The notes under the pieces: model-generated | What the model saw: the letters and a program-made list of their open reading frames with translations, nothing else | Told to the model about the DNA's origin: nothing | Database searches by the model: none | Assembly: GCA_046349975.1 (NCBI GenBank) | Contig: JAXMBH010000002.1 | Span: forward strand, 128,470 to 192,469 | DNA from: Pirellulales bacterium | Lineage (GTDB): Bacteria > Planctomycetota > Planctomycetia > Pirellulales > Lacipirellulaceae | Direction of reading: 5' to 3' | Length of the DNA stretch: 64,000 nt | Program-made: the position numbers and the translations under genes | Shown: positions 24,282 through 57,425 of the stretch, piece after piece | How the letters are laid out: each line of letters begins with the position of its first letter | How positions within the stretch are numbered: the first letter of the stretch is position 1

Positions 24282-24293
24282 AAAGGCAACCGC

Positions 24294-25685: not shown

Positions 25686-25697
25686 TCGAGGTGGTGC

Positions 25698-26387
25698 GTG
25701 GAAATCATCGTGCTTAGTAGCGCGGATGCCGTCGCTGCCGAAGCCGCGGCGCTCATCGCGCAGGATGCCCGCGATGTCGTGCGCGCCCGCGGCCGGTTCG
25801 TGCTTGCCGTCAGCGGTGGGCGCACGCCCTGGCAAATGTTGCGGGCGCTTGCCAGGGAAGACGTGCCCTGGTCCGGCGTGCATATTGTGCAAGTCGACGA
25901 ACGGATCGCCCCCGCCGGCGACGCCGATCGCAATCTCATGCACCTCCATGCCAGCTTGCTCGAAAACTCGCCGATCCCCATCGAACAAATTCACGCGATG
26001 CCGGTGGAGGCGAACGACCTCGATGCCGCGGCAGCCCAGTATGATAGAATGCTCGCGCAACTCTGCGGCGAGCCGCCGGAGATCGACCTGGTACATCTCG
26101 GCATGGGGCCCGACGGCCACACCGCGTCGCTCATTCCAGGCGACCCCGTGCTCGACGTGGCCAATCGCGACGTGGCGCTCACCGGTCTCTATCAGGGGCG
26201 CCGACGAATGACGCTGACGTACCCGATTATCAACCGCGCGCGTAAAATCCTGTGGTTGATAACAGGCGCCGACAAAGCCGACCGGCTCCCGCAACTGCGA
26301 GCTGGCGATGCCACGATTCCGGCGGGCCGCGTGAACCAATCGCGTGCGACGGTCATCGCCGATCATTCCGCTGCAGCTAAAATATAG
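25698..26387 (+). CDS. pgl: 6-phosphogluconolactonase
   Basis: 229 aa with SGGRTP and PDGHTASL motifs, directly downstream of zwf. Confidence 0.85.
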   Translation: MEIIVLSSADAVAAEAAALIAQDARDVVRARGRFVLAVSGGRTPWQMLRALAREDVPWSGVHIVQVDERIAPAGDADRNLMHLHASLLENSPIPIEQIHAMPVEANDLDAAAAQYDRMLAQLCGEPPEIDLVHLGMGPDGHTASLIPGDPVLDVANRDVALTGLYQGRRRMTLTYPIINRARKILWLITGADKADRLPQLRAGDATIPAGRVNQSRATVIADHSAAAKI

Positions 26388-26548
26388 GCTTAACATTGAA
26401 GTGAATTTACAGCCGATAGCCCAGGCTCTGCCGGGGGCTTACGTCGGGTGGCATGGTGCGAGCGTTAAAACCCCCGGCAGAGCCGGGGGCTGACGGGGAT
26501 GCGCATGATGCGACGAAGTGTGATGCAATGAATGTGAAAGGCACGACC

Positions 26549-26998
26549 ATGCGAGTAGGAATCGCCACTGACCACGGCGCGTTCGACCTGAAGAACGACA
26601 TGATCGAGCGCCTTGTGCAAGCGGGGTTCGAAGTGATCGATTTCGGCGCCGAAACACTCGACCCGAAAGACGATTACCCCGACTTCGTCATTCCGCTCGC
26701 CCGCGCTGTGGCGAGCGGCAAGGTCGACCGTGGCATCGCCGTGTGCGGCAGCGGTGTCGGCGCTTCGATTTGCGCGAATAAAGTCCCGGGCGTGCGTGCG
26801 GGCCTGATCATGGATCATTATTCGGCCCATCAGGGCGTCGAGCACGATCATATGAACGTCATCTGCATCGGCGGCCGCGTTGCCGGTGTGGAAGTCGCTT
26901 GGGACCTCATCCAAGCGTTCCTCGAAGCCCACCACAGTTCCGAAGAACGGCACTTGCGGCGCCTGGCGAAAGTCGCCGCGCTCGAAGAGCAGAGGTAG
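26549..26998 (+). CDS. rpiB: ribose-5-phosphate isomerase B
   Basis: MRVGIATDHGAF...CGSGVGASICANKVPGVRAG RpiB/LacAB signature. The start was chosen at MRVGIA. Confidence 0.85.
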   Translation: MRVGIATDHGAFDLKNDMIERLVQAGFEVIDFGAETLDPKDDYPDFVIPLARAVASGKVDRGIAVCGSGVGASICANKVPGVRAGLIMDHYSAHQGVEHDHMNVICIGGRVAGVEVAWDLIQAFLEAHHSSEERHLRRLAKVAALEEQR

Positions 26999-27088
26999 GC
27001 GATTGCCTGGCAGCTGGATTCTTGCCACCCGCCGCGCCGCATTGTAGGGTGGGCACTGCCCACCATTCTCCGCACCGCCGCGTTTGCG

Positions 27089-30883: not shown

Positions 30884-33118
30884 TTATTTGCCGTTGGTCG
30901 CCGCGGCGGGTTCGAGATTTGCCGGGGCGGTTGCCGTTGTTAGTGGTTCGGCGGCGATGCGTTCGGCGAACGAGCGGAGGTCGCTGAGTTCGGGCGTGTC
31001 GGCGCCGAGTTGGAAGCCGCTTTTTTCGGCGACCAAGAGGCTCACCAGCAAGCCGAGCAGGCCGCTCGTGGCGCTGGCGTCTGGCGACGTCGAGCCGCCG
31101 GCGTCGTGGCCGTTCGAACCGGCCATGAAGACGCGTTCGGGAACGAGCGGCTGCTTGCTCTGGGAGAGGTTCTTCGACACGAGCGACAGGGCGTACAACC
31201 GTGGGTCGCCGTACGAGGCGATGCGTCGCAAGAGCACCGAGGCTTCGGCCAGACCGACTTGGGCGATGCGTTGCGACTGGCCGCGGCCGGCGAGTTGTTC
31301 GCGTTCGGCGGCGGCTTTCGCCAGCACGACCGTTTGCTCGGCCTCGCGGCGTGAGCGGGCGAGCTCGGCGTCGGCGACGACGATCGTCTGCTCGGCCTTT
31401 TTGCGGGCCATCGCCAGGTCGGCTTCGCTTTGGCTCTCGGCAACTTGCACGTTGACGCGAGCGTTCGTGAGCTTCGTCTGCATGTCGGCATGGGCTTCGG
31501 CTTCGAGCAGCACGCGGCGTTTTTCGGCTGCGATGCGTTGGCGGTCGTATGTTTCCACTTGCTCGGTCGACAGTTGGCGTTGCCGCAACTGTTCGAGCAG
31601 CGTTTCGATTTTCGAGTCGCCTTCGCGCGGGTCGGGCTTGCCGATGAGCACGTCGACGCATTCGATATCGAACTCGTGAAACTTCTCGCGGAGCTTCTCA
31701 CGGGCTTCGCCCTGGATCTTCTGCCGTTCGTGCAGCAGCTCGAGCATGGTCTTGGTGTGGGCGATATCGCGGAAGAACGCGCTGAGCATCGGGTCGAGCG
31801 TTTGCGTGATGAGTTTCTTCACGTCGCCAAAGCGTTGGATAACGCCCGGGGCACGCTCGTAGTCGATATGCACCACGACCGAGAGCGGGAGCAGCGGCTC
31901 GTAGGCGTCTTTCGTCACGAGGTCGATCGATTTGAGACTTTCGTCATAACGATGCGACTCGCTTTTGCCCGTGATCCAATGGAGCACGAAGTTGGTGGTG
32001 GGCACGAGGACGATGCTGCCGGCGAACGTGTTGAACGCGTATTTGCCGGGGCCGAGCGGCCGCATGCGCACGCCGCGTTCGCCTTCGCCGACGCGTTCAC
32101 CATGGCGGAAGCCGGTGCCGGTGAGGTCCTGGCCTTCGCGTCCGTAGTAGCTCACGACGACGCCGACGTAGCCGATCGGCACGACGGTTTTTGGAATGAG
32201 CTCGACCGAGGCGAACCAGCGGTTGATGAAGTAGGTACCATCGGTGAGCGGCACATACTGCCGACCACGCCGACCACCGGCCGCGAGGAAGGCTTCGGGA
32301 TCCTGGTAGTTGTTGTGATAGTTCGGTTCGCTGGCGTTCGTGCCGACGGCTGGAGCGATAATTTCGCCGGGGGCGAGCGACGGACCGTCTTGGATCGTGA
32401 CGATGCCGATGCTGTCGACTTCGCAATCTTGGTCGGCATCGAACGGGTCGGCCGCGTGCATTTTGCGACCGATGACGACGGGGCTGAAGCCGTCGACGGC
32501 GAGCAGAGCGTCGCGCCATTGCAGGATCGCCTGCCACTCGCTTTTCTCGACGAGGTCATCGAGTGCGTGGACCTTCGATTCGGTGATGACGGTGAATACG
32601 GCAAGGTTAATGGCGTACACGCCTTCGCGGAGGATGCCGCGCTGGCGACCGCGTTGACCGGCATCGGGGCCGGCGAGGAACGCGGCGGCGTCTTGGAAGT
32701 TATTGCAATCGACGAGGCGGCCGAGCGTTTGGCTCGAGGGCAGCGGCTCGCCGTCGCGGGCGTACACGTAGCCGATCTTGCCTTCGGAGATGGTGACGAG
32801 ACGGACCTTGTGCACGGCGTATTGCCATCGCCAGAGTCCGATGTGGACGCCACCGCGGAGGAGCGCGGCCTGATAGCCGGCTTCGCCGCCCAGGGCGATG
32901 ATGCGGCCTTCGCCGACCGAGCCGCTGGAGGACCAGAGCTTTTCGACAATGCCGACGTAATCGTTCGGAATGTAGCGGAGCGCGAGCCAGATCCAGAGGA
33001 GCGGCAGGAGCACGAGCGCGGCCATCACGACGAGCGTGGTGGTGGTGAACTCGAACCAGATTTCAGCGGGGGCGAGAACTGGGAGGATCCAGTTCGCCAG
33101 GGAAAAAGTGGTAAACAT
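30884..33118 (-). CDS. flotillin-like SPFH/band-7 domain membrane protein
   Basis: N-terminal TM helices are followed by an SPFH domain and a long Ala/Glu/Gln-rich coiled coil (EAEAHADMQTKL...AELARSRREAEQ), which is typical of flotillins (YqiK/FloT-like). The start was moved to M75 of the tracked ORF (MFTTFSLANW) at 33118, which has an AAAGGAAC ribosome-binding site. Confidence 0.7.
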   Translation of the reverse strand: MFTTFSLANWILPVLAPAEIWFEFTTTTLVVMAALVLLPLLWIWLALRYIPNDYVGIVEKLWSSSGSVGEGRIIALGGEAGYQAALLRGGVHIGLWRWQYAVHKVRLVTISEGKIGYVYARDGEPLPSSQTLGRLVDCNNFQDAAAFLAGPDAGQRGRQRGILREGVYAINLAVFTVITESKVHALDDLVEKSEWQAILQWRDALLAVDGFSPVVIGRKMHAADPFDADQDCEVDSIGIVTIQDGPSLAPGEIIAPAVGTNASEPNYHNNYQDPEAFLAAGGRRGRQYVPLTDGTYFINRWFASVELIPKTVVPIGYVGVVVSYYGREGQDLTGTGFRHGERVGEGERGVRMRPLGPGKYAFNTFAGSIVLVPTTNFVLHWITGKSESHRYDESLKSIDLVTKDAYEPLLPLSVVVHIDYERAPGVIQRFGDVKKLITQTLDPMLSAFFRDIAHTKTMLELLHERQKIQGEAREKLREKFHEFDIECVDVLIGKPDPREGDSKIETLLEQLRQRQLSTEQVETYDRQRIAAEKRRVLLEAEAHADMQTKLTNARVNVQVAESQSEADLAMARKKAEQTIVVADAELARSRREAEQTVVLAKAAAEREQLAGRGQSQRIAQVGLAEASVLLRRIASYGDPRLYALSLVSKNLSQSKQPLVPERVFMAGSNGHDAGGSTSPDASATSGLLGLLVSLLVAEKSGFQLGADTPELSDLRSFAERIAAEPLTTATAPANLEPAAATNGK

Positions 33119-33757
33119 GCGACGTTCCTTTCGTTGTGGTGCGCAGTTGTAGTGGGCACGCTCTGCGTGCCGTAACTGGAGCACAAATGGCTGTTTGCGA
33201 TGGGTAATGCGGCGGCTGTTGCTGGAGGTCCAGCAACGGGCACGGCGGAGCGTGCCTGCTACACTAGTTCGCACGCCAGAACGGTGGTGCTTATCGCCGC
33301 AGCGCAGTGGCGAAGAAAGCCCTTCCACTTGGCCGAACAACGCGTTCGACCGGCCGACGAGGTTAGCTGACGGGCTAGGGCTGGAAAGTGCCCCGATGGA
33401 TTGGAGTCGAGAGCTGAGAGTCGAGAGTCAAGAGCCAGAGTGTTGTACTGACCTGATCACCGATATCCGAGATCCCACGACTTCAGATCGCATCTGCGCC
33501 CCGTGGAGAACTTGTGTGGTTGTTTGCTTGCGCCCGCACTTGTTCGCCGTTTGGGTCCCCCGCTGCCGCGTCTGGCGACGTGGCATTAGGCTGCGTGACG
33601 CTCATTATAACGTCACAAGGCATTCGCCGTAGAAGTGCGAATATTGGGCAGATTGCAACTGGTTATGGCTGTGGGAATTGCTCAAAATGGGACGGCTTTA
33701 AGTGGCGTTGACGGGTGATGAGTAGCGACCACGACATGAAGTGAAAAAAACGTATTC

Positions 33758-37012: not shown

Positions 37013-37441
37013 ATGTTGCCGAAAACATCTGAATACGCGCTGCGCGCTGCCGTATGGCTGGGGCGGGAGCCCGAGAGCACCGAATCGGCCGATGAGCTGG
37101 CGAAGGTGACGAAGGTTCCCCGGCGGTATTTGCACAAGGTGCTGCAAGACCTGGTGCATGCGGGGCTGGTGCGTTCGCAGCCAGGGCCTGGCGGCGGTTA
37201 CGGGCTCGCAAAGAAGCCGAATGCGATTTCGATTCTAGACGTGGTGAATGCGGTGGCACCGCTGGAACGGATTCGCGGCTGCCCATTGGGGCTTAAGTCG
37301 CACACAAGTTTGTGCCCGTTACACAAAGAACTCGATGAAGTGTATGCGACGATAGAAGAGTCGCTGGCGCGGGTGACGATTGGGCAGCTGCTGACGTCGA
37401 CGCGGGATATTGTGCCGCTGTGCGAAGTGGGGCCGCGGTAG
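37013..37441 (+). CDS. Rrf2-family transcriptional regulator (IscR/NsrR-like, 3 Cys)
   Basis: N-terminal wHTH SEYALRA...L, three C-terminal cysteines ([15 protein letters not shown], plus one further Cys) typical of Fe-S-binding Rrf2 proteins. 142 aa. Confidence 0.85.
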
Positions 37442-37561: not shown

Positions 37562-37987
37562 CTATGAGGCGAGCTTTGCATCCATCGTGACTTTGGTGTT
37601 GAGGAGGCGCGAGATGGGGCAGCCGGCTTTGGCATTGTTGGCGGCAGCTTCAAAGGCTTTCTGATCGGCGCCCGGGATTTTCACGCTGACGTCGAGGTGA
37701 GATTCGGTCACGGTGAAACCGGCGTCGGTTTTTTCCATCGTGATCGTGCAGAGCGTTTTGATTTCAGTGGCGGTCATGCCGGCGTTGCCGAGTTGGCCGG
37801 AAAGGGCCATCGAGAAGCAGCCGGCGTGGGCGGCGGCGATAAGCTCTTCGGGATTCGTGCCCTTGCCTTCTTCGAAGCGGGTGTTGAATGAGTACTGGGT
37901 GCTGGAAAGAACGCCGCTGTCGGTCGAGATCGTACCTTTGCCGTCTTTGAGGCCGCCGCTCCAAACTGCCGAGGCTTGCCGCTTCAT
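37562..37987 (-). CDS. OsmC/Ohr-family peroxiredoxin
   Basis: Has the two conserved Cys (AAAHAGCFSM and KAGCPIS) and the OsmC fold pattern. The start was moved to MKRQASAVW to give the typical 142 aa. Confidence 0.8.
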   Translation of the reverse strand: MKRQASAVWSGGLKDGKGTISTDSGVLSSTQYSFNTRFEEGKGTNPEELIAAAHAGCFSMALSGQLGNAGMTATEIKTLCTITMEKTDAGFTVTESHLDVSVKIPGADQKAFEAAANNAKAGCPISRLLNTKVTMDAKLAS

Positions 37988-38232
37988 GGTTTTGCTCCTG
38001 TCTATACGATTTGACGATGTATTTCGGGGACCGCTCATATTGCGCGAGGAGTGGCGGTTCGCCAAGGGGGTAGAGTGGAAGAAGTATGTAGCAGGATTCC
38101 GGATTGCGGTGGCGTTCCGGCTAGTTGGGACTGCTTCGTTGAACTCGATTAGCCGGCCGACTTAACAACTTGTTTGGTGACTGAATTCTTGCGAATTCAG
38201 TTACAGCACGCGGAGCGTGGCTACCATATTTC

Positions 38233-38715
38233 TCAATCGACAGGGCCACGGTCGCGGGTGAAAGCCTCGGCGTACCAGGTTTGCAGCGTGAGTTCTTGCT
38301 TACGGATGCGAGCGAGCAGCATTACCCCTTCGTTGATGAGCGCCCGCGTCAGGCGGGTGGCTTTGTCTTCGTCGGGTTCGAGCTTTGGCGATTGCTCGGC
38401 GGCTCGCGTGAGTGTTTGGCGGAACTTTTCGAAAGCTTCGAGGATGGCGCAGTCCTCTTCTTTGAGCCGGTCGATCTGAGAGAGCAACTCGGGGTCTTGG
38501 TTACCGATTTCGTCATACTCTTCGGTATGAAATTGGGTCAGCTCGCGATTGAGCTTGTCAGCGGCCTCGTTGGCAGTGAGCTGGAGATGTTCGAACCAAA
38601 CCCCCAAATCGCCAGCGATAATCGGTGTGAGCAGCGCTTTCTCAAACGCGTCGAGTGCGGTTTTCAGTTCAGCGTCGGAAGTTGCTGGGGCGGATTGCTT
38701 GCCATCGGTGGTCAT
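38233..38715 (-). CDS. hypothetical acidic helical protein
   Basis: 160 aa with coding-like composition and no recognised family. It lies upstream of osmC on the same strand. Confidence 0.35.
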   Translation of the reverse strand: MTTDGKQSAPATSDAELKTALDAFEKALLTPIIAGDLGVWFEHLQLTANEAADKLNRELTQFHTEEYDEIGNQDPELLSQIDRLKEEDCAILEAFEKFRQTLTRAAEQSPKLEPDEDKATRLTRALINEGVMLLARIRKQELTLQTWYAEAFTRDRGPVD

Positions 38716-39096
38716 TCGTCGCTCCAGAGGCGCGTGTAACTGTGGTTGAAGATGTAGTTCCGCAGTTTTTTAGCAAGCGCCGCGCCAAAAAGGCGAGATG
38801 GTCAGCCAAGATTCAGTCCGGTGTATTTAGTGGCGTGTATTCGATCAGCGTGGCTCATTAATGACCAGTCGTGCTGTGGGCCCGCCGACTGAAAGCACGC
38901 ATGTGACGTGGTTTCCGGCAAATCAAGCTGATTTCAAACTGGCCCAATAAGTGCATATGTGGCCAGTCAGGCCTAGCTGGCGGCGGTGCACATTCCGTCT
39001 ATTTCCAGCATTTCTGTACACGGCGGTGCAGTTCATCGCTTCCCCGACGCATGCGTTCAGCGCTGATACCACGGTTTTGACAAGGAGAATGTCGCC

Positions 39097-42000
39097 ATGC
39101 AGATGTTGGAAGATCAAGCCGAAGCCGGATTGGATCCTCGCGCGCTTCTGACTGCTCTCAACGCGTTCAAGAAGGGGGACTTTTCCGTTCGGCTGGAGAC
39201 TGATGTTAACGGCATGGCAGGCAAGGTGGCGGCCGCGTTCAACGAAGTGCTGGAACTGAACGAGCGGCTGGTCGGCGAGTTGGATCGGATCAGTCAGGTG
39301 GTCGGTAAGGCCGGCCGGCTGAATCAACGAGCGTCGTTGGGCGAAGTTGGCGGCTCGTGGGGGCAGGCGATCAATTCAGTCAATGCGCTGATTAGCAACC
39401 TGGTGCACCCAACAGTCGAGACGAGCCGCGTCATTGGCGCCGTTGCGAAGGGCGACCTTTCGCAGACCATGGCGCTGGAGATTAACAAGCGTCCGCTGCA
39501 GGGCGAGTTCTTGCGGACGGCGAAGACCGTGAACCGGATGGTGAGCCAGCTGGGGTCATTCGCATCGGAAGTGACGCGCGTGGCGCGCGAAGTGGGTACC
39601 GACGGGAAGCTGGGCGGCCAAGCGAAGGTGCGAGGTGTGGCAGGCACGTGGAAGGACCTGACCGATAACGTGAACTTGATGGCCGGTAATCTTACGGGCC
39701 AGGTGCGGAATATCGCGGCGGTGACGACGGCCGTGGCGAACGGCGACTTGACGAAGAAGATCACCGTCGACGTGAAGGGCGAGTTCCTAGAGCTGAAGGA
39801 CACCATCAACACGATGGTGGATCAGCTGCGGTCGTTTGCGTCGGAAGTGACGCGTGTGGCCCGCGAAGTGGGTACCGACGGCAAGCTCGGCGGCCAGGCG
39901 ATGGTGGAAGGCGTTTCCGGTACGTGGAAAGACCTCACCGATAGCGTGAACTTCATGGCCAGTAATCTTACGGGCCAGGTGCGCAACATCGCCGACGTGA
40001 CGACGGCCGTGGCGAACGGCGACTTGTCGAAGAAGATTACGGTGGACGTGAAGGGTGAAATTCTCGAGCTCAAGAACACCATCAACACGATGGTGGATCA
40101 GCTGCGATCGTTCGCGGCAGAAGTGACGCGTGTGGCCCGTGAAGTCGGTACCGAAGGCAAGCTTGGCGGCCAGGCCGATGTGCGCGGCGTGGCCGGCACG
40201 TGGAAGGATCTTACCGACAGCGTGAACTTCATGGCCAGCAACCTCACAGGCCAGGTGCGCAACATCGCCGACGTGACGACGGCCGTCGCGACGGGCGACT
40301 TGTCGAAAAAGATTACGGTTGATGTGAAGGGCGAAATCCTCGAGCTCAAGAACACCATCAACACGATGGTGGACCAACTGCGGTCGTTTGCCTCGGAAGT
40401 GACGCGTGTGGCCCGCGAAGTGGGTACGGAAGGCAAGCTCGGTGGCCAGGCCGATGTGCGCGGCGTGGCCGGCACGTGGAAGGATCTTACCGACAGCGTG
40501 AACTTCATGGCCAGCAACCTCACAGGCCAGGTGCGCAACATCGCCGAAGTGAGCACGGCCGTGGCGAACGGCGACTTGTCGAAGAAGATCACAGTCGACG
40601 TGAAAGGTGAAATTCTCGAGTTGAAGGTGACCATCAACACGATGGTGGATCAGCTGCGGTCGTTTGCGTCGGAAGTGACGCGTGTAGCCCGCGAAGTGGG
40701 TACGGAAGGCAAGCTCGGTGGGCAGGCCGAGGTGAAGGGCGTGAGCGGCACGTGGAAGGATCTCACCGATAACGTGAATTCGATGGCCGGCAACCTCACC
40801 AGCCAGGTGCGCGGCATTGCGGAAGTGACAACGGCCGTGGCCAACGGCGACTTGTCGAAGAAGATTACGGTCGACGTGAAGGGCGAAATCCTGGAGCTCA
40901 AGAACACGATCAACACGCTCGTAGATCAGCTGAGTTCGTTTGCGTCGGAAGTGACGCGTGTGGCCCGCGAGGTGGGTACGGAAGGCAAGCTCGGTGGTCA
41001 GGCCGATGTGAAGGGCGTGAGCGGCACGTGGAAGGATCTCACGGACAGCGTGAACTTCATGGCCGGCAATCTCACGAGCCAGGTGCGCGGCATCGCGGAA
41101 GTGACGACAGCCGTGGCGAATGGCGACTTATCGAAGAAAATTATCGTCGATGTGAAGGGCGAAATCCTCGAGCTCAAGAACACCATCAACACGATGGTGG
41201 ACCAACTGCGGTCGTTTGCCTCGGAAGTGACGCGCGTGGCCCGCGAAGTGGGCACCGAAGGCAAACTCGGCGGTCAGGCCGACGTGCGCGGCGTATCGGG
41301 CACGTGGAAAGACCTCACCGATAACGTGAACTTCATGGCCAGCAATCTTACGGGCCAGGTGCGCAGTATCGCGGAAGTGACGACGGCCGTCGCCCGCGGC
41401 GATTTGTCGAAGAAGATCACGGTCGACGTGAAGGGCGAAATCTTGGAACTCAAGAACACCATCAACACGATGGTGGATCAGCTGAGCTCATTCGCCTCGG
41501 AGGTGACGCGTGTGGCCCGCGAAGTGGGTACGGAAGGCAAGCTCGGTGGTCAGGCGGAGGTGAAAGGTGTTTCCGGTACGTGGAAGGACCTCACCGATAA
41601 CGTGAACTCGATGGCCGGCAACCTCACGAGCCAGGTGCGGGGTATCGCGAAGGTCGTGACGGCTGTGGCCAATGGCGACTTGAAGCGGAAATTGACGGTG
41701 GAAGCGAAAGGCGAAATCGCCGCGCTGGCGGATACGATCAACGGCATGATCGAGACGCTGGCCACGTTCGCCGATCAGGTGACGACAGTCGCCCGTGAAG
41801 TGGGTGTGCAAGGCCGGTTGGGCGGTCAGGCGAGCGTGCCGGGCGCTGCCGGTACGTGGAAGGCGCTGACCGACAATGTGAATCAGCTCGCCGCGAATCT
41901 CACGACGCAGGTGCGGGCCATTGCCGAAGTGGCCACCGCCGTGACGAAGGGCGACCTCACGCGATCGATCTCGGTCGAGGCCCAAGGTGAGGTGGCCGCT

Positions 42001-44814
42001 CTCAAGGACAATATCAATGAGATGATTCGTAACCTCAAGGATACGACACTCAAGAACAGCGAGCAGGACTGGCTCAAGACGAACCTCGCGAAGTTCAGCC
42101 GGATGCTCCAAGGCCAGAAGGACTTGCTCACGGTCGGTCGGCTCATTCTGTCGGAACTCGCGCCGGTGGTGAACGCCCAGCAAGCCATGTTCTACCTGCT
42201 CGATACCGGCCAGGAAGCGGCGCAGCTGGTGCTGCTCGCGAGTTATGCGTATCAGCCGCCGCGCACGGTGGGAACGACGATCGCCCTCGGCGAAGGATTG
42301 GTTGGTCAGTGCGCCGTGGAACGCGAGCAGATTCTGCTCACGAACGTGCCGCCGGAATACACGCAAGTGAGTTCTGGATTGGGCGGTGCTCCGCCGCGAA
42401 GCATCATCGTGTTGCCGGTATTGTTCGAAGGACAGGTGAAGGCCGTGCTGGAGCTGGCGTCGTTTGAAACGTTCAGCCCGGCTCACCAGGCCTTGCTCGA
42501 ACAGCTGACGGAAAGTATCGGCATCGTGCTCAACACGATCGCCGCGAACATGCGGACGGAAGACCTGCTCAAGCAGTCGCAGTCGCTGGCCATGGAATTG
42601 CAGAATCGTCAGCAGGAACTGCAACAAACGAACCAGGAACTCAAGGAAAAAGCTCGCTTGCTCGCCCACCAGAACGTCGAAGTGGAGCGCAAGAACCGCG
42701 AAGTCGAGCAAGCGCGGCAGGCGCTCGAAGAGAAGGCAAAGCAACTCGCACTTACCTCGAAGTACAAGTCGGAGTTCCTGGCGAACATGTCGCACGAACT
42801 GCGGACGCCGCTCAACAGCTTGTTGATCCTTTCCGACCAGCTATCGAAGAACCCCGACGGCAACCTTACGCCGCGGCAGACCGAGTACGCCCAGACGATT
42901 CACTCATCCGGCAACGACCTGCTCACGCTCATCAACGATATTCTCGACCTGTCGAAGATCGAATCGGGTACGGTGGTGCTCGATGTCGGCGAGGTGCGGT
43001 TTACGGAGCTCCACGACTTGCTCGAACGCACGTTCCGGCACGTCGCCGAGGCCAAGGGAGTGGACTTCCTGGTGCATCTCGCGCCAGATTTGCCGCTCAA
43101 CATGCAGACCGATAGCAAGCGCGTGCAGCAGGTACTCAAGAATTTGCTCTCGAACGCATTCAAATTCACACATCGCGGCACGGTATCGCTGGACGTGCGG
43201 ATGTCGCATGCCGGTTGGAGTAGCGACAACGATATGCTCAAAAATGCAGATGCTGTGGTGGCCTTCAGCGTCACCGATACCGGCATTGGCATTCCGCCGG
43301 ATAAGCAGCAGAGCATTTTCGAAGCGTTCCAACAGGCCGACGGCAGCACGAGCCGGAAGTACGGCGGCACGGGCCTGGGCCTCGCGATCAGCCGCGAACT
43401 CGCGCGGCTGTTGGGCGGTGAGATCCGCCTGATCAGCATGCCGGGCGCAGGCAGCACATTCACGCTCTATTTGCCGATGTCGTACACATCGTATACCACG
43501 CCCCGGCCCGCGCGGCGGCAGACGATTGCGCCCGTGGCGGCGGCCGAACCCGAGCCGGCGCCATTGCCCGAGTTCGCGAAAGTTGAAGAGCCGGTCACGT
43601 TCAACGAGTTCGACGATGACCGCGATTCGATTCAAGCGAATGATCGGGTGGTGCTGATCGTGGAAAACGATCCGACATTCGCGAAACTCCTGTTGGAAGC
43701 GGCTCGTGAAGGCGGATTCAAGGGGATTGCGACGTCGCGCGGGGCGGCGGCGTTGTCGCTCGCGCACGAGTATCGAATCTCGGCAGTGACGCTCGACATA
43801 TGCCTGCCAGATATCAACGGCTGGCGGGTGCTGCGGCGACTCAAGCAGGATCTCGACACGCGGCACATTCCGGTGTACGTCGTGTCGACCGAAGACGAAC
43901 GCGAAAGTGCCCAGAGCATGGGCGCCGTCGACACGGTGCAGAAGCCGTTGCAAACAAAGGAGACCATGGATGAGCTGTTCGCAGCGATTCGTCGGTTCAT
44001 CGAACGGCCGGTGAAAGAATTGCTGGTTGTGGAGACCGACGGCGAGCGTCGTGAGAAGTTGCTCAATGTGATTGGCAACGGCGATGTGCGGCCGACCGCG
44101 GTGGCCAGCGGCGCTGAAGCCTTAAAAATCCTGGACGAAAAGCAATTTGATTGTGTTGTGTTCGATGTGAATGCGCCGGAGTCGAGTGTCGACGCCGTGA
44201 TCGATCGACTGCACGCCAACCCGCAGCATAGCGACACGCCGCTGGTGATGTACTCCGAAGAACCGCTGCTCCTCGACGAGGCAATGACCGATCGGCTGGC
44301 CCGCTCGACAACGGTGCGGCACGTGCAGTCGCCCGACCGGTTGCTCGACGAAGTGAACTTACTGCTGCATCGACCGACGTCGACGCTCAGCGAGCCGCAG
44401 CGGCAGATTTTGCAGAAGTTGCACGAGGACGACGCGATCCTCAACGGCAAGAAAGTGCTGATTGTCGATGACGATATTCGCAATATCTTCGCCCTCACGA
44501 GCATCCTGGAACGGTATAATATTCATATCTTGTCGGCGGAAACGGGCCGCGATGCCATTCAAATTCTGCAAGACACGCACGACGTGGATGTGGTCTTGAT
44601 GGACATCATGATGCCCGAGTTTGATGGGCTGGATACGACCCGAGCGATTCGCGAGATTCCGCGGTTCAAGGATTTGCCGATCATTGCGGTGACGGCGAAG
44701 GCCATGAAGGGCGACCGCGAGAAGTGCATTGAAGCGGGCGCTTGGGACTATTTATCGAAACCGGTGAACCCGGAGCAGTTGTTGGCAGCGTTGCGTGCTT
44801 GGATACGGCGCTAA
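39097..44814 (+). CDS. soluble hybrid sensor histidine kinase with poly-HAMP array (about 20 HAMP domains), GAF, HisKA/HATPase_c and three receiver domains
   Basis: 1905 aa with AAGGAG 8 nt upstream of the ATG and no TM segment. Nine 92-aa units (...[92 protein letters not shown]...) each contain a canonical and a divergent HAMP. These are followed by a GAF domain ([14 protein letters not shown]...[20 protein letters not shown]) and a coiled coil. The kinase core has an H-box ([17 protein letters not shown]) and a G-box ([23 protein letters not shown]). The three REC domains end with a canonical one (VLIVDDD...[13 protein letters not shown]...K). Confidence 0.9.
39560..42050 (+). repeat. nine tandem 276-bp coding repeats (8 about 88-99% identical, 1 diverged) encoding the poly-HAMP units
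   Basis: The periodicity is visible in the nucleotide sequence. For example, 40150-40290 and 40426-40566 are nearly identical, and the AAGTGACGCGTGTGGCCCG-CGAAGTGGGTAC blocks recur every 276 nt. It also creates many spurious antisense ORFs. Confidence 0.85.
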
Positions 44815-46969: not shown

Positions 46970-47203
46970 GCATGTTGGGTTCAAAACGGTTTAATGGTAA
47001 GTGAGGGCTTATTCGTGTGAAGCAATCGTGCCGACGCCGTGGAAGCCGCGGCGGCAAGCGATAGTTGGGACTGCGCAAGGCGTTGCGGCTGCGAAGCGAC
47101 AAAGTAAACGCGGCATCCTTGCAGGCGACTGGGAATACTGGAAACAATTAAGTCATGTAGCTTGATTCGCTCGGGCGAACTCGGCTATCTGGAGGAAAAA
47201 AGC

Positions 47204-48676
47204 ATGTCACGCATTTTGGTAATCGATGACGATCGTTCAGTGCGGCATTTGATCGGTAAGGCATTCGAGGAATCGGATGTCGAAGTAGTGCCGGCAGCCA
47301 CTTCAGATGAAGGCCTGCAGCTGCTCGGCAGCCGGCAGTTCGACGTAGTGCTCCTCGACATTTTATTGCCAGAGTCTTCCGGTCTGGATGTGTTCGAACG
47401 CATTCGGCAGATTGACCCGAAGCTGCCAGTGATCTTCATCACGTCGCTCTCGAGCAGCGATACGGCGATCAAGGCCATGACGCTGGGCGCATTCGATTAC
47501 TTGCTTAAACCGCTCGATTTAGCGCGGATTCGCGACCTGGTGCGGCAAGCGATCGAGATTCGCCGCTTAATGAGCATTCCGGTCGAGATGCCCGGCGCTC
47601 GGAACGGGCGCATGAACGGTGCGGTGACCGAGAATCGTACCGACACGCTCGTGGGCAATAGCCCGCAGATGCAGGAAGTGTACAAGGCGATCGGCCGCGT
47701 GGCGCCGCAAGATGTGACCGTGCTCATTCGTGGCGAGAGCGGCACGGGCAAAGAGCTTGTCGCCCGGGCGCTCTATCAGCATAGCCCGCGTGTGAAGGGC
47801 CAGTTCCTAGCGGTGAACTGCGCGGCGATCCCGGATGCGTTGCTGGAAAGCGAGCTGTTCGGCCACGAGAAAGGGGCCTTCACCGGCGCCGATCAGCGGC
47901 GAATCGGCAAGTTCGAACAATGCTCGGGCGGCACGCTGTTCCTCGATGAAATTGGCGATATGTCGCCGCTCGTGCAGAGCAAGGTGCTGCGGGTGTTGCA
48001 ATCGCAACAGTTTGAACGTGTCGGCGGCAACCAGACGATCAGCACCGATGTGCGCGTCATCGCGGCGACGAACCGCGACCTCGAGAAAATGGTTGAGGAA
48101 GGCGATTTCCGTTCCGACCTCTACTACCGGCTCAGCGGGTTCACGATCCAGCTCGCCCCGTTGCGTGATCGGCCCGAGGACCTGCCGCCGTTGCTCGAAA
48201 ATTATCTGGCACTCTTCAGCAAGGAACTGAGCAAAGATGTGCACGGTTTCTCGCCCGAGGCGATGGACGTGCTGCTCAATTACTCTTGGCCCGGCAACGT
48301 ACGCGAACTGCAAAACGTGCTTAAGCAGACGTTGCTGCGATCCGCCGGGCATGTGGTGATTCCAGATTTCATTCCCGATCGTGTTCGCACGCCGGGCAGC
48401 AGCTCGGCGAGCGATGGCGGCGACTTGCCAGGGACCGACCTTCGGCAGTTCGTCGATGAACGCCTGGAACACGAATCGACGGATTTGTATGCCGAGGCAC
48501 TTGAGTTCATGGAGCGCTACGTGGTGACTCGCGTGCTCCGCGTGTGCGAGGGCAACCAGTCGAAGGCCGCCCGGATGCTCGGCATCACCCGCGGTTGTTT
48601 ACGGAGCAAGGTGCGGGCGCTCAAAGTCTCAATCGACACGCGCGTGCAGGTGGAAGGCGAGCCGGTCGAAGTCTAA
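47204..48676 (+). CDS. sigma-54-dependent response regulator (NtrC family: REC + AAA+ + Fis HTH)
   Basis: The receiver domain reads ILVIDDD...VLLDILLPESSG. The AAA+ domain has a GESGTGKE Walker A motif, a GAFTGA sigma-54 contact motif and an ESELFGHEKGAFTGA-like segment. The C-terminal HTH reads ARMLGITRGCLRSKVRAL. GGAGG lies 8 nt upstream of the chosen ATG. Confidence 0.9.
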   Translation: MSRILVIDDDRSVRHLIGKAFEESDVEVVPAATSDEGLQLLGSRQFDVVLLDILLPESSGLDVFERIRQIDPKLPVIFITSLSSSDTAIKAMTLGAFDYLLKPLDLARIRDLVRQAIEIRRLMSIPVEMPGARNGRMNGAVTENRTDTLVGNSPQMQEVYKAIGRVAPQDVTVLIRGESGTGKELVARALYQHSPRVKGQFLAVNCAAIPDALLESELFGHEKGAFTGADQRRIGKFEQCSGGTLFLDEIGDMSPLVQSKVLRVLQSQQFERVGGNQTISTDVRVIAATNRDLEKMVEEGDFRSDLYYRLSGFTIQLAPLRDRPEDLPPLLENYLALFSKELSKDVHGFSPEAMDVLLNYSWPGNVRELQNVLKQTLLRSAGHVVIPDFIPDRVRTPGSSSASDGGDLPGTDLRQFVDERLEHESTDLYAEALEFMERYVVTRVLRVCEGNQSKAARMLGITRGCLRSKVRALKVSIDTRVQVEGEPVEV

Positions 48677-48925: not shown

Positions 48926-49297
48926 TCAAGCCGTCACACTATTGCCCACATTGCTGCGAATCGCTGCAAGTAGCTGCTGCAATTCCTGCTCGAGCTCGAT
49001 AAACTGGGCATCCACATGTTCGAGTTTTGCGTGGTGGCCGGCGTCTTCAATTTGCTGAGCGGCCTGCCCTGCCCTTTCGCCGCCGCAGCCAAGCACGAGC
49101 CCTTTCAGGGCGTGCGCCTTCGCGCGAATGCTTGCCGCGTCCCTCCGTTCCACTGCCTGCTTCAGTTCCTCGGCGAGTGGTGGCGCATCATCCAACAGGA
49201 TGGCCGCCATCTCACGGAAAAGTTGTTCATCGCCACCAAAGCGGGTTAGAGTCGCCTCAATGTTGAGAATCCTTGCAGTCAACGCACCATCTCTCAT
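48926..49297 (-). CDS. Hpt (histidine phosphotransfer) domain protein
   Basis: 123 aa. It has the Hpt phosphoacceptor region AKAHALKGLVLGCGGERAGQAA in a four-helix-bundle-like context. Confidence 0.7.
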   Translation of the reverse strand: MRDGALTARILNIEATLTRFGGDEQLFREMAAILLDDAPPLAEELKQAVERRDAASIRAKAHALKGLVLGCGGERAGQAAQQIEDAGHHAKLEHVDAQFIELEQELQQLLAAIRSNVGNSVTA

Positions 49298-49651: not shown

Positions 49652-49978
49652 CTATTTCGAAGCGTTCTGTTTTCGAGTACGGGCAGCCTTTCTTGCCGAG
49701 GCCCGTCGGGCGGCCTTTGGCCGGGCGGCCGCTGCTGCACCGCCTTTCTTGCCACCAGTACGCGATGGCACCTTGTTTTGTTCCTTGCCGCGACCGGAAC
49801 CCCCCGGTTTCTTGCCGCCATGGTCGCTGGCATTCACCGTCGCCCAGGCCCGCCGCTCCGCTTCTTTCTCCGACAAGCCGCGGCTTTCGTAGCCCTCTTC
49901 GATATGCTGCGCCTTGCGTTTTTGCTTGTCCGTATATTTCGATTTTTCGCCTCGCGGCATGACTCCCTCCCTGGCCAT
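49652..49978 (-). CDS. small Lys/Arg/Gly-rich disordered protein with conserved N-terminal PRGEKSKYTDKQKRKAQHIEEGYE...RAWATVN motif (stress-protein-like)
   Basis: 108 aa with a very basic, low-complexity C-terminus. The N-terminal about 50 aa appear to be a conserved small-protein motif seen in other bacteria. It is preceded by a consensus sigma-54 promoter. Confidence 0.5.
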   Translation of the reverse strand: MAREGVMPRGEKSKYTDKQKRKAQHIEEGYESRGLSEKEAERRAWATVNASDHGGKKPGGSGRGKEQNKVPSRTGGKKGGAAAAARPKAARRASARKAARTRKQNASK

Positions 49979-50073: not shown

Positions 50074-50089
50074 AGCAAGAACCGTGCCA
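50074..50089 (-). promoter_or_regulatory. sigma-54 (-24/-12) promoter TGGCACggttcTTGCT directing transcription of the 49978 gene
   Basis: The reverse complement of 50074-50089 is TGGCAC-N5-TTGCT, a perfect match to TGGCAC-N5-TTGCW with GG-N10-GC spacing. It lies about 95 nt upstream of the ATG at 49978. Confidence 0.55.
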
Positions 50090-50348: not shown

Positions 50349-50915
50349 ATGAAGGCGGCAACAATGGCAAGCAATACAACCACGGTGAAACTAAACGAAC
50401 ACGCAAGCGAGGAGCGGCCGATTGAAGTCGGCGTGTTTGATGCGATCGATGCCGCCCGCCAGGCCGTGCACGGCCTGCGAGCGGCCGGATTTGGCATCGG
50501 GCAAATCACGGTCGTGTGCTCCGACGAAACAAAGGAACGTTATTTTAGCGAGTTCGAACATCAAGATCCCGCGGGCACTCACACGCCGACGGCTTCGATC
50601 GCGGGTGGAACGATAGGGGCAGTCGTTGGCGGTTTGGCCGTTGTGGCATCCGCCGTGGCTACCGGTAGTTTGGCGCTGTGGGCGGCCGGACCGATTTCAG
50701 CGTGGGCTGGCGGCGTGGCTGGCGGCCTCGTGGGCGCAATGATGACACGCGGCGTCGAGAAAGAGTTGGCAAACTACTATCAACAAGCCGTGATGAACGG
50801 TCAGATTTTGGTGGCGGCCGAGGATCACAGCGAGGCGAGCGCCAGCCGTCTGGCAGAGGCCGCGCGCATTCTTTCCCAGGCGGGCGCAAAGCCCCTGCCG
50901 TTGCGAGAAGGCTAG
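50349..50915 (+). CDS. YflT/general-stress-protein-17M-like domain protein with Gly-zipper membrane segment
   Basis: The N-terminal IEVGVFDAIDAARQAVHGLRAAGFGIGQITVV matches the YflT-type domain. It is followed by a Gly/Ala-rich hydrophobic segment (GGTIGAVVGGLAVVASAVATGSLALWAAG). 188 aa, with a possible alternative start at 50364. Confidence 0.55.
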   Translation: MKAATMASNTTTVKLNEHASEERPIEVGVFDAIDAARQAVHGLRAAGFGIGQITVVCSDETKERYFSEFEHQDPAGTHTPTASIAGGTIGAVVGGLAVVASAVATGSLALWAAGPISAWAGGVAGGLVGAMMTRGVEKELANYYQQAVMNGQILVAAEDHSEASASRLAEAARILSQAGAKPLPLREG

Positions 50916-52537: not shown

Positions 52538-53050
52538 CTAACGACTACTCACGGATGCCGGATTGACCGAACTCTCGGCGATTTGTGTCAGCTGTTTGTC
52601 GGTCGATTTTTCTTCGTCGAGTGTCTGTTCGAGCAACTCGGCCGCGTAAGAATCGGCAATGCGCTGCGCGAATGTGCGAGCCGTACCATAGGCTGCAATT
52701 TCATAATGTTCGACACGCTGCGCCGCCGCAATCAGGGCAGCGTCCAAAACGTCTTTGTCGCCTTCAGCGCTCAACACGTTGCTGCCTTCTTTGATGAGCC
52801 CACTCATTGCGGCGCACGTCTCTCGTTCGGCATCGAGCCCGCGGTGTTCGAAGATCGACTCTAGCCGCTGGGCATGCTTTTCAGTTTGCGTAAGGTGGCT
52901 TTGAAATGCGCGTTTGAGCGCCGGGTTGGTCGCTTTGTCAGCCATTTTCGGAAGCGCGTCAATTAACTGCTGCTCGGCGTCGTACAGGTCCTTCAGCTCG
53001 TGAACGAACAGTTCTTCCAAGGAGTTGAACTCCTCACTCATAAAAAGTCC
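52538..53050 (-). CDS. ferritin-like YciE/YciF (DUF892) stress protein
   Basis: The N-terminus reads LEELFVHELKDLYDAEQQLIDALPKMADKATNPALKRAFQSHLTQTEKHAQRLE, and the protein has a four-helix ferritin-like pattern. The start was chosen at MGLFM, which has GGAGG 6 nt upstream. Confidence 0.8.
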   Translation of the reverse strand, partial: GLFMSEEFNSLEELFVHELKDLYDAEQQLIDALPKMADKATNPALKRAFQSHLTQTEKHAQRLESIFEHRGLDAERETCAAMSGLIKEGSNVLSAEGDKDVLDAALIAAAQRVEHYEIAAYGTARTFAQRIADSYAAELLEQTLDEEKSTDKQLTQIAESSVNPASVSSR

Positions 53051-53263
53051 CATCGCTGACCTCCAATACCTTATTGCTATTGCGTGGCTGCGTACATTCA
53101 CAGGTCGCAGTACTACCCGGCCTAAACCCGGACGCATAGGTCATGCCAATTGCCCTCGCGCTTGCCACGGCGAAAAATCGTTGAAGACCGATACCGATCG
53201 AGGCGGGAGCAGCGTGCGACGTTGGGTGGCCAGTACTTGGTCGGGCCGTCGCGAGTTTAGAGA

Positions 53264-53949: not shown

Positions 53950-54630
53950 TTGAGCTTTGAGAGGATACCTACTGCCATGTTTTCTGATGCCATGATACTC
54001 GTCGTTGGGGCTGATCCGCAGGACCGCGAAATCATTCTTCAAGCACTCGGCGAGACATGTCACGTGGTGGCGGCTCAAAATACGGAAGACGCGCTAGCGC
54101 ACATCTCGGATCGGGTTCAGCTCGTTATCTGTGAGAGCAACGGCGCGAGCTTTCGGGGCGAGGACCTGCTGCGGCGATGGAAGTCGACGCGGTCGGGCAC
54201 GCCGTTTCTCATGCTGATCGGTGAGCATGATGTCAACGGCGCGATCAACGCGATGAAGACTGGCGCCGATGATTGCATCGTGAAGCCGATTGCAGTTGGC
54301 GCGTTGCGTGACGCTGCAAAGGCGCTCCTGGCAAATGCTGTTGATCGGCCGGTGAACGGTTCGAACGACCCGTCGTCTGGACGCCGACGTTCAAATATCG
54401 ATATTCCGCCGGACACCTCGCTCGAGGATTTGGAGCGCGCGGCGGTCGAGCAGGCTCTCGTTCAACACCATGGCAATCGCACGCATGCGGCTCGCACCCT
54501 GGGAATTTCGGTGCGCACGCTGCAGCGGAAGTTGAAAGCATGGGGAATGCCGATCGTCTCGTTCCCTAGCTCGCCCTCAGCCGCAAATTTTCTACGATCA
54601 ACTCCATCGTTTCGGGCGCACGTTCATTAA
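53950..54630 (+). CDS. atypical response-regulator-like protein (receiver with Glu at phosphoacceptor position) + Fis-type HTH
   Basis: The REC-like N-terminus has acidic residues in the beta1 loop (LVVGADPQD) and a conserved Lys (CIVKP), but the position expected for the phosphoacceptor Asp reads LVICESNG, with Glu. The C-terminal HTH reads HGNRTHAARTLGISVRTLQRKLK. A possible alternative start is at 53977. Confidence 0.6.
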   Translation: MSFERIPTAMFSDAMILVVGADPQDREIILQALGETCHVVAAQNTEDALAHISDRVQLVICESNGASFRGEDLLRRWKSTRSGTPFLMLIGEHDVNGAINAMKTGADDCIVKPIAVGALRDAAKALLANAVDRPVNGSNDPSSGRRRSNIDIPPDTSLEDLERAAVEQALVQHHGNRTHAARTLGISVRTLQRKLKAWGMPIVSFPSSPSAANFLRSTPSFRAHVH

Positions 54631-56306: not shown

Positions 56307-57425
56307 CTATTGGTCCGTGCTGATTTCGCTGCCAGCGCGCGTGACGAGCCGGGCGAAGTCGCGGATGTTGATATCAGCGTTCAGCCAGCGCACTGAACCA
56401 TCGCCCATGCAGAAGTTTGCGCCGCCGGGGTGAAAGCCGTATGGCTCGCCTGTGCCCACGGAGTTGTAATAGGGGTGCGGGAATGTGGCGCCGATTTCAA
56501 TGCCGTTCGTGCAGTTGACTGCGCAGGTGCCGACGTCGGTGGCGCCGTCGCCGCTCGTACCGTCGATGCTGATATCGCTGGCTGGGCGGCACCAGCCGCC
56601 GCCGTTGACCCGCTTCGCGGGAAACGTTTCGATCTGGCGGCCGCCGCGATACAGGTACGGCCGGCCGCCCGACTCGGCGTACGCGATTGTCTTTGACAGG
56701 CCGTCGGTGACCTGGTTAATTTTGGCCGGCACGTTGTAGGCCAACAAGCCCAGACCTGGCGAACCGGCGGCCGGCGGCATCGTGGCATTCGGCGGCGCGG
56801 CTTCATCAACCAGGTTCGACGCCGAGCTCGGATTCGCCGGATCCGGACGCAACCGCTTGTCGACAAAGATCGTGGGCGAGTAATCGGTCACCGCGCCGGT
56901 GTCGGGCGTCCAGGGGCTGATTTCCGGCACGCCGTCGAGGCGATTTGGTTCGGGCACCGAGGGGCATTGAAGAATGGCAATCTTCGTGTTCACGATGTCC
57001 TTGTTCCGCGCGCCCTTCGCATTCACGGTGTTGTCGGACCAGTTCTTGGCTTGATCATATTGATCGAACTTCGAACCTTCTTCGAAGAACGGCAACATCA
57101 GCGTGAAGCCGGCGATACGCGGAGCGTTCGTCAGTCCCGGCGGGCGGATGCTCGACGGAAACGTCTTCTTCGTGTCGACGTAATTGTGCATCGAGATGCC
57201 GAGCTGCCGGATATTGTTCTGGCACGAGCTGCGGCGGGCCGCTTCGCGGGCGGCTTGAATGGCGGGCAGCAGAAGCGCAACCAAGATGCCGATGATCGCG
57301 ATCACGACGAGCAACTCGACGAGCGTGAAACCACTGCGCGATGCGGCGGCGTTGCTGTGTGGCGGAGCGTTCACGCTTGCCGGCGCGCCTCCGATGCTAC
57401 GAATACTGATGGAATGGCGTGTCAT
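56307..57425 (-). CDS. DUF1559 protein with prepilin-type N-terminal cleavage/methylation domain and H-X9-DG motif (Planctomycete pseudopilin-like)
   Basis: The N-terminus [51 protein letters not shown] is the class III signal peptide/pilin-like helix. The C-terminal [15 protein letters not shown] gives the H-X9-DG motif. Confidence 0.85.

Follow-up and report, generated by a model that had tools for sequence, protein, structure and literature searches.

How does a histidine kinase receive a signal when about half of its length is an unbroken series of HAMP domains and no membrane sensor precedes them? This question is raised by a gene at 39097..44814 in a stretch of 64,000 nucleotides from a Pirellulales bacterium (contig JAXMBH010000002.1, assembly GCA_046349975.1), the whole of which we analysed and refer to as the window. 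A first-pass annotation had described the gene product as a soluble hybrid kinase whose HAMP array was exceptionally long and of a rare kind. We conclude that it is very probably a poly-HAMP hybrid histidine kinase of the AskA type ('class III-like') that resides in the cytoplasm and would work by the array and relay mechanism proposed below. The architecture, the 21-HAMP layout and the structure of such kinases are already published. What value the locus has is modest and lies in its gene context.

A 21-HAMP kinase of the AskA family

The N-terminal 983 residues are laid out in a 46-residue register as 21 HAMP domains: one canonical HAMP followed by ten non-canonical/canonical pairs, nine of which are exact 92-residue units (Table 1). 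Pfam recovers 9 HAMP (PF00672, 3.9e-96) and 10 HAMP_2 (PF18947, 2.5e-86) stretches above threshold, and Tandem Repeats Finder (TRF) detects, over 39547-41718, 7.9 copies of a repeat whose period is 276 bp, with matches at 85%. The first-pass annotation had proposed about 20 HAMPs of alternating canonical and divergent type, arranged in nine 92-residue units, and had suggested a count with a HAMP hidden Markov model (HMM). That count, made with Pfam, confirms that the repeats are HAMP-like; the alternation and the nine units hold, and the precise number of domains is 21.

Several positions within the array are distinctive. HAMP1 is canonical, covers approximately residues 13-59 and has only 12 residues before it. 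The first 155 residues are thus taken up by HAMP1-3, which leaves no room for a separate sensor in the first 130, where the sensory input had been suggested to lie. The input helix of HAMP3 contains a proline ('HPT', in '...HPTVETSR'), and the domain has 50 residues rather than the usual 46, with a connector longer by four. A G[ST]W tryptophan occurs in all ten non-canonical HAMPs, and the conserved glycines of the units include those in 'NGDL', 'KGE' and 'GG-QA'. The NCBIfam Aer2 model also matches the units. Further Pfam matches in the array, all sub-threshold (DUF1759, PylD_N, Laminin_II, GatB_Yqey, HTH_6 and others), were rejected as summed repeat artefacts in which no stretch passes alone.

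These features place the protein in a family that has recently been defined. Coles et al. (Protein Sci 2026) describe kinase-associated poly-HAMP arrays as chains of five HAMPs or more, joined without linkers and built from repeated di-HAMP modules in which a non-canonical HAMP (group C) is paired with a canonical one (group D); a distinct canonical D1 HAMP opens the chain, and GAF-DHp-CA-REC(s) follow it (PMC13446029). In Myxococcus xanthus, AskA has a 21-HAMP array (D1 and 10 C-D2 repeats), and that of its paralogue AskB comprises 31 (PMC13446029). In AskA HAMP3 the input helix is kinked by a proline and the connector has an insertion, which the crystal shows as a beta-hairpin; both traits are strongly conserved among poly-HAMPs of the AskA-like kind. 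In kinase arrays a conserved tryptophan begins the output helix of the non-canonical HAMPs, and conserved glycines sit at the HAMP-HAMP junctions (PMC13446029). Two AskA segments have been solved, one of six HAMPs fused to GCN4 (9trk) and one of four (9trj) (PMC13446029). Residues 5-291 of the window kinase match 9trk chain A (AskA residues 43-328) at E 5.7e-124 with 71% identity and a single one-residue gap near the N-terminus; from HAMP1 to HAMP6 the identities are 57%, 47%, 76%, 91%, 83% and 87%. The same residues match 9trj_A at E 2e-75. The HAMP3 connector insertion aligns with AskA 'EVDGRPLRGE', and HAMP1 is of canonical type with no sensor or transmembrane segment upstream, as in D1-led arrays.

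Every defining feature of the AskA-like family that can be read from sequence is present in the window kinase. By this comparison it is a close homologue of AskA (MXAN_0712, UniProt Q1DEE3), with the same 21-HAMP layout and the same hallmark residues. Both proteins are soluble, both have the HAMP3 proline and insertion and the tryptophan of the non-canonical HAMPs, and in both the array is followed by GAF-DHp-CA and three receivers. AskA differs in having about 38 more N-terminal residues. The likeness extends to gene order, in that a second hybrid kinase gene lies directly downstream both here and in askB-askC. It does not extend to the whole system: the window cluster carries a sigma-54 activator and an Hpt gene and belongs to a different host, and the myxobacterial outputs of the Ask system (MrpC/FruA, fruiting-body development, ambruticin response) are not to be assumed for this kinase.

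The start of the protein is well supported. The ATG is preceded by an AGGAG Shine-Dalgarno sequence at 39083-39087, and because an in-frame TGA lies 33 nt upstream, an N-terminal extension or hidden membrane anchor is impossible. No membrane segment was found in the 1905 residues, the highest 19-residue Kyte-Doolittle average (1.63) falling in charged beta-strands of the GAF domain. The description of the kinase as soluble is thus upheld. Scans for sigma-70 promoters and for terminators gave counts at or below shuffle expectation. Long antisense open reading frames (ORFs) inside the gene, such as 41488..42795 on the minus strand, were dismissed as high-GC artefacts.

Beyond the array, Pfam bears out the annotated order of GAF, HisKA/HATPase and three receivers, and finds no Hpt domain inside the protein. 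The solved GAF domains nearest to that of the kinase are weakly similar (PDE 5w10, 1.8e-4; PtsP 3ci6, 2.4e-3). The kinase motifs HELRTP at 1233, NLLSNAFKF at 1349, DTGIG at 1394 and GTGLG at 1424 indicate that the DHp/CA core is competent, with intact H (His1233), N, G1 and G2 boxes. The receivers were aligned to E. coli CheY. REC1 has the active-site set E-N-D(1567)-S-K. REC2 has E-T-D(1690)-S-H, with histidine replacing lysine, and is probably a pseudo-receiver. REC3, with its complete set of residues, is the likely intramolecular phospho-acceptor.

Comparison with better-known HAMP proteins sharpens the assignment. Fungal group III kinases (Nik1/Os-1/Bos1/TcsC/CaNik1p) are likewise cytosolic, with N-terminal 92-residue HAMP pairs followed by HisKA-HATPase-REC. 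They are eukaryotic proteins with one receiver and much shorter arrays (5-6 repeats; CaNik1p has approximately 9 HAMPs), whereas the window kinase has 10.5 repeats and three receivers; their output is the HOG MAP-kinase pathway via Ypd1, whereas the candidate output here is a sigma-54 activator. CaNik1p has four 92-residue HAMP pairs plus one HAMP, and the HAMP region of group III kinases, whose Hpt partner is Ypd1, has been implicated in osmosensing and fungicide response (PMC3848655). Shared ancestry of the fungal and bacterial kinase arrays has been suggested (PMC13446029). By analogy, the window kinase would work like the group III kinases without being a member, as a functional analogue or a distant relative.

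Aer2-type chemoreceptors also have soluble arrays of alternating canonical and divergent HAMPs, tightly packed and with junction glycines. They differ in their methyl-accepting MCPsignal output and in their group A/B HAMPs, which have phenylalanine where the window kinase has tryptophan; Aer2 itself has just five HAMPs, interrupted by a PAS domain. Pfam finds no MCPsignal domain in the window kinase and similarity to Aer2 is marginal (3vol, E 9.9e-4), which together with the tryptophan rules out a chemoreceptor array of the Aer2 type. EnvZ, PhoQ, NarX and Af1503 share the HAMP fold and the proposed axial-rotation ('gearbox') signalling to the DHp; kinases of the EnvZ/PhoQ/NarX type differ in having a single HAMP right after a transmembrane helix and a periplasmic sensor.

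Array length, abundance and conservation

To place the array among its relatives we used several samples. A word-indexed protein search returned at least 8000 proteins at E<=1e-30, many of which match the kinase and receiver parts only. The 120 best-scoring homologues are full-length (1940-2669 residues, 64-74% identity, 98-99% coverage where reported), and their named sources include Acidobacteriota, Planctomycetota, Verrucomicrobiota, Myxococcota and Proteobacteria. The planctomycetal ones among them are Frigoriglobus, Aquisphaera and Limnoglobus, together with metagenome-assembled genomes (MAGs) of Gemmataceae, Pirellulaceae and Tepidisphaeraceae. Where an entry names its source, the annotation is usually 'HAMP domain-containing protein' or hybrid sensor kinase. 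HMMs built from the window's own units, which give a lower bound, detect 21-36 HAMPs in these 120 proteins, with a median of 28.5; in the query itself they detect 20.

Since score ranking favours long arrays, 80 species-representative genome loci served as a second sample, in which units were counted as G-x-W chains spaced exactly 92 residues apart. Nine internal units, equivalent to 21 HAMPs, were found in 27 of 79 representatives and eleven units, or 25 HAMPs, in 28; the array was longer in 16 and shorter in 5. The length class of the window kinase is therefore one of the two most frequent and belongs to the short side of the range. Comparison with other Planctomycetota, which the first-pass annotation had proposed, turned up orthologues with more units: Frigoriglobus tundricola and Limnoglobus roseus have at least 30 HAMPs each and Aquisphaera giovannonii at least 29. 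Nor is the family small. In a filter-free search of 1.84 billion representatives at 50% identity, the array alone retrieves 6652 clusters at E<=1e-10, of which 1762 reach E<=1e-30; 4778 poly-HAMP kinases with at least five HAMPs have been counted in NR90 (PMC13446029), and more than 12 phyla contain relatives of 60-73% identity. The 922-residue C-terminal part aligns end to end with relatives and has its best matches in MAGs of Tepidisphaeraceae, Verrucomicrobiales and Gemmataceae.

These distributions bear on two alternative views of the array. One is that it represents an exceptional, unusually long and hence rare or new design, a signal-conversion rod or oligomeric scaffold. The array is indeed long beside textbook single-HAMP receptors and the approximately 9 HAMPs of CaNik1p (PMC3848655), and no function has been established for poly-HAMP arrays (PMC13446029). 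Yet AskA has the same layout and AskB a longer one, none of the best 120 has fewer than 21 detectable HAMPs, the 21- and 25-HAMP classes dominate and the family has thousands of members, such that neither 'exceptionally long' nor 'rare' can be retained and this view is very improbable. The other is that the array is an artefact or part of a pseudogene, its repeat number or frame made wrong by repeat collapse or expansion, for which 276-bp tandem repeats are a classic source. We give this almost no credence. The ORF is uninterrupted across 5.7 kb, and a total of 21 HAMPs is a common class in the family. Units 1-7 are about 90% identical as protein and just 81-89% identical as DNA, and thus differ at 11-19% of DNA positions; between-unit codon differences are 693 synonymous against 356 non-synonymous, which points to purifying selection. 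From this DNA divergence and synonymous excess we conclude that the copies are old enough to have diverged and can be resolved by assembly. Moreover, a metagenomic fragment found in a representative-library search (P0139) is 98% identical over residues 479-990, and BLASTP aligns it to units 4b-9 in the same unit-by-unit register.

The similarity of the units proves to be a property of the family. The first-pass annotation had singled out near-identical units; they are present, but they are not special to this kinase, because units 1-7 are 80-93% identical to those of 21-HAMP relatives from other phyla. This is as similar as they are among themselves, and there is no positional correspondence. 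Positional orthology is confined to the last two units (89% and 100% of comparisons); the 98%-identical fragment, unlike the distant relatives, keeps its units in position. At this divergence one internal unit can stand for another, and we can therefore claim neither that the units were amplified recently nor that their positions are strictly conserved across phyla. Against the same relatives, the GAF-kinase-receiver part reaches just 53-62% identity. On these identities, the catalytic core is less constrained than the rod. Because the array is more conserved than the enzyme part, we argue against a passive spacer.

Candidate partner kinase and relay genes

The gene that follows the poly-HAMP kinase encodes a second hybrid kinase, which we call HK2 (Table 1). 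In M. xanthus, askB is directly followed by the hybrid kinase gene askC (MXAN_6734). The receiver of AskC is bound by Rec3 of AskA; AskC binds ambruticin, and the Ask system is tied to development and to ambruticin and glycerol sensing (PMC7643160). HK2 is, by its gene position and predicted domains, AskC-like in position and type. Its N-terminal receiver has D-D-D-T with threonine in place of the conserved lysine ('FISTP'), and its C-terminal receiver has E-D-D-M-K.

The pairing is widespread. We scanned the downstream genes in 74 sequences, comprising 73 related loci and the window's own HK2. The gene directly downstream of the poly-HAMP kinase encodes a receiver in 52 of the 74, and a kinase ATPase domain as well in 41. 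The order of poly-HAMP kinase then HK2 is kept in metagenomic loci L083, L086-L088, L090-L098, L100, L103-L106 and L109, and HK2 identity in close metagenomic relatives is 78-87%. The pair of kinase and partner kinase is therefore family-wide and conserved across phyla.

In a subset of relatives another gene comes first. CheR is the first downstream gene in 15 of the 73 related loci (among them L004, L005, L009, L011, L013, L015, L017, L025, L059 and L064). In L005, L013 and L015, it is followed by a receiver-less CheB methylesterase and then by a REC-GAF/PAS-kinase-REC partner that shares the architecture of HK2 (for example, L005:13002-16703 and L013:10985-14885). No CheR or CheB was found in the window, and the structure paper makes no mention of CheR, methyltransferases or operons (PMC13446029). 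One possibility is that, in the approximately one fifth of relatives with this linkage, as distinct from the window, reversible methylation of glutamates tunes either the HAMP rod or the partner kinase.

Downstream of HK2, the window carries a sigma-54 activator with canonical receiver residues and, convergent with it, a gene for a stand-alone Hpt protein. Two related metagenomic loci share parts of this arrangement: in L083 the poly-HAMP C-terminus is followed by HK2 and the activator, and in L085 HK2 is followed by the activator (87% identity) and a convergent Hpt gene (50%) in the same position and orientation. This activator/Hpt extension is specific to the close lineage.

A perfect sigma-54 -24/-12 consensus, TGGCACGGTTCTTGCT, is the sole zero-mismatch match in the 64 kb. 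When one mismatch is allowed there are six matches against 2.44 expected, a number reached by 3 of 100 shuffles. The consensus stands upstream of the Hpt gene, which itself is beside the activator gene, and may mark a feedback loop. Taken together, partner kinase, Hpt, activator and sigma-54 consensus suggest a complete His-Asp-His-Asp relay.

The ORF next to this consensus, 49652..49978 (-), precedes the Hpt gene and encodes 108 residues rich in lysine and arginine, with no Pfam match. On the other side of the cluster, a one-mismatch sigma-54-like site, TGGCGCGGCGCTTGCT, lies at 38772-38787 (-), 57 nt upstream of ORF 38233..38715 (-). Neither this site nor one with two mismatches at 38940-38955 (+), which faces the kinase gene, exceeds what chance would give. 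ORF 38233..38715 (-) encodes 160 residues without a family match, is divergent from the kinase gene and is followed by OsmC.

The wider neighbourhood includes stress and regulatory genes: Rrf2 at 37013..37441 (+), OsmC at 37562..38065 (-), a weak YflT-like match at 50349..50915 (+), a DUF892/YciF-like gene at 52538..53137 (-) and a REC-HTH_8 regulator without an AAA+ domain at 53950..54630 (+). Synteny of the upstream genes (Rrf2, OsmC, a PQQ protein and ORFs of unknown function) was found in none of 80 genome loci. Look-ups by exact sequence gave nothing for the kinase or for MalQ, and matched the small Rrf2 protein alone, on short Logan contigs. A DUF1559 (SBP_bac_10) protein with a prepilin-type N-methylation motif is encoded at 56307..57425 (-); this family is greatly expanded in Planctomycetota. 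Very large ORFs (630-1116 residues) with no NCBIfam match at E<=1e-10 lie at 15704-17596 (+), 23247-26396 (-), 26465-29815 (-), 27089-30061 (+) and 30884-33340 (-), the third and fourth of which overlap on opposite strands. The DUF1559 protein, which is the best clue to the taxon, these large ORFs and the PVC-group matches of the kinase C-terminal part would all suit a host in Planctomycetota or the wider PVC group.

Table 1. Positions of the kinase gene, its domains and the associated downstream elements in the window
Feature	Position	Strand	Basis and remarks
Poly-HAMP hybrid histidine kinase gene, very probably AskA-type	39097..44814	+	Uninterrupted ORF, 1905 residues; Pfam architecture
HAMP1 (canonical, first-position type), HAMP2 (non-canonical), HAMP3 (canonical)	39133..39561	+	Alignment to 9trk_A
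Nine exact 92-residue di-HAMP units (HAMP4-21), each non-canonical + canonical	39562..42045	+	Residues 156-983; TRF 276-bp period, register table, identity matrices
GAF domain, candidate small-molecule input site	42118..42531	+	Residues 1008-1145; Pfam GAF_2 2.5e-18, GAF 6.3e-12
Kinase core: HisKA 1224-1291 (predicted phospho-acceptor His1233) and HATPase_c 1339-1461 (N, G1, G2 boxes)	42766..43479	+	Pfam
Receivers 1 and 2, both non-canonical	43642..44376	+	MAFFT alignment to E. coli CheY
Receiver 3, fully canonical D-D-D1836-T-K	44455..44796	+	Pfam best stretch 1787-1900; active-site residues
Second hybrid kinase HK2, REC-GAF-HisKA-HATPase-REC, 714 residues	44825..46969	+	Pfam; 10-65 nt after the poly-HAMP stop, depending on start
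NtrC-type sigma-54 activator, REC-AAA+-HTH_8; candidate terminal response regulator	47162..48676	+	Pfam Sigma54_activat 4.5e-74, Response_reg 1.8e-28, HTH_8
Stand-alone Hpt, 123 residues, HALKG motif, His62	48926..49297	-	Pfam Hpt 2.2e-9, above cutoff; convergent with activator gene
Perfect sigma-54 -24/-12 consensus, putative promoter	50074..50089	-	96 nt upstream of ORF 49652..49978 (-)

Input, output and competing readings

From the AskA crystal structures and the published model, we infer that the kinase would act as a parallel homodimer in which the 21 HAMPs stack without linkers to form one continuous supercoiled four-helix bundle. By our own estimate, which uses roughly 33 helical residues per two HAMP layers, this rod would be about 50 nm long. 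Canonical and non-canonical HAMPs would occupy opposite axial-rotation ranges, such that each di-HAMP module would hand the rotational state on unchanged. An array without an upstream sensor would most likely itself be the input or tuning element, with an equilibrium that could be shifted by a physico-chemical cue (osmotic or other stress), by partner binding or by modification; the GAF domain is a second possible input. The state would then pass through a helical linker of about 75 residues to the DHp and there set kinase versus phosphatase output. Gene context suggests that phosphate may travel from His1233 to Asp1836 in REC3, on to His62 of the Hpt protein and finally to the receiver of the NtrC-type activator, with HK2 as an AskC-like partner or co-sensor that would dock through its receiver. 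Likely targets would be the sigma-54 promoters flanking the cluster, beside stress-type genes.

As for the cue, an osmolarity-type stress is the most economical guess. It is made because of the parallel with fungal group III kinases (92-residue HAMP pairs, Hpt relay, HOG) and because of the stress-type neighbours, and it is circumstantial. For the output, we advance tentatively, and rather doubtfully as a whole, a four-gene relay of poly-HAMP kinase, AskC-like kinase, Hpt and activator that would drive sigma-54 promoters at 50074-50089, and perhaps at 38772-38787, beside OsmC/DUF892.

Several observations weigh against this account of input and output. The structure authors call the role of the array unclear and report no input signal for any bacterial member; the options they suggest are tuning by array length, ligand recognition by the HAMPs and post-translational modification (PMC13446029). 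The stress-gene neighbourhood lends circumstantial support. In the 80 more distant species-representative loci no sigma-54 activator was found, only receiver cross-matches, and the activator may be lineage-specific or merely an adjacent regulator. The window Hpt and the 108- and 160-residue ORFs had no phmmer matches in the related loci, a result to be read with the rapid divergence of Hpt domains in mind. Sigma-54 matches with up to two mismatches number 41 against 33.75 expected, near chance, and the one-mismatch sigma-54-like site approximately 420 nt upstream of the L085 Hpt gene is equalled in 33 of 200 shuffles and is not significant alone.

Alternatively, the GAF domain could be the true sensor, of a small molecule, with the HAMP array a passive or gain-setting appendage upstream of it. 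GAF domains commonly bind ligands, nothing feeds into the N-terminus of the array, and a GAF domain, labelled 'sensory GAF', stands between array and DHp in every family member (PMC13446029). A passive role is hard to square with an array that is so much better conserved than the GAF-kinase-receiver part in the same relatives, and signalling by fungal group III kinases changes when their HAMPs are deleted or carry point mutations (PMC3848655); nor has the GAF significant similarity to any GAF of known ligand, the best E value being 1.8e-4. We regard this reading as unlikely, though a real contender. A further proposal, which we hold to be improbable, is that the array serves above all to dock DNA or proteins and that the kinase acts in a promoter-bound complex rather than as a classical sensor. 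AskA and AskB bound mrpC promoter DNA, MrpC and FruA in vitro (PMC7643160), and the very high conservation of the unit surface across phyla would agree with a binding partner that is itself conserved. As regulators of myxobacteria, MrpC and FruA cannot explain conservation across more than 12 phyla, and according to the structure authors the mechanism of DNA binding is not established (PMC13446029). The 'partial HTH_6/HTH_DeoR' motifs, for their part, correspond to sub-threshold Pfam matches inside the HAMP helices; for HTH_6 (RpiR) the score is 23.5 bits against a cutoff of 28.3, and no stretch passes. The possible DNA-binding motifs put forward for AskA and AskB were partial matches of the same sort; in the window kinase such matches look like noise summed over the repeats.

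Returning to the AskA-type kinase with its array and relay, the value of one more sequence as a catalogue entry is small, as thousands of homologues are annotated as 'HAMP domain-containing protein'. The greater conservation of the HAMP units than of the catalytic core across phyla bears on what such rods sense, and the CheR/CheB insertion in approximately 20% of related loci provides a lead on the same question. Functional data on bacterial poly-HAMP kinases are limited to the Myxococcus proteins, and the context of this locus gives testable hypotheses for output. If true, the relay would be the first case in which the transcriptional output of a bacterial poly-HAMP kinase is defined, and it would offer a tractable reporter. 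It would, moreover, correspond in bacteria to the osmostress route that runs from fungal group III kinases through Ypd1 to HOG.

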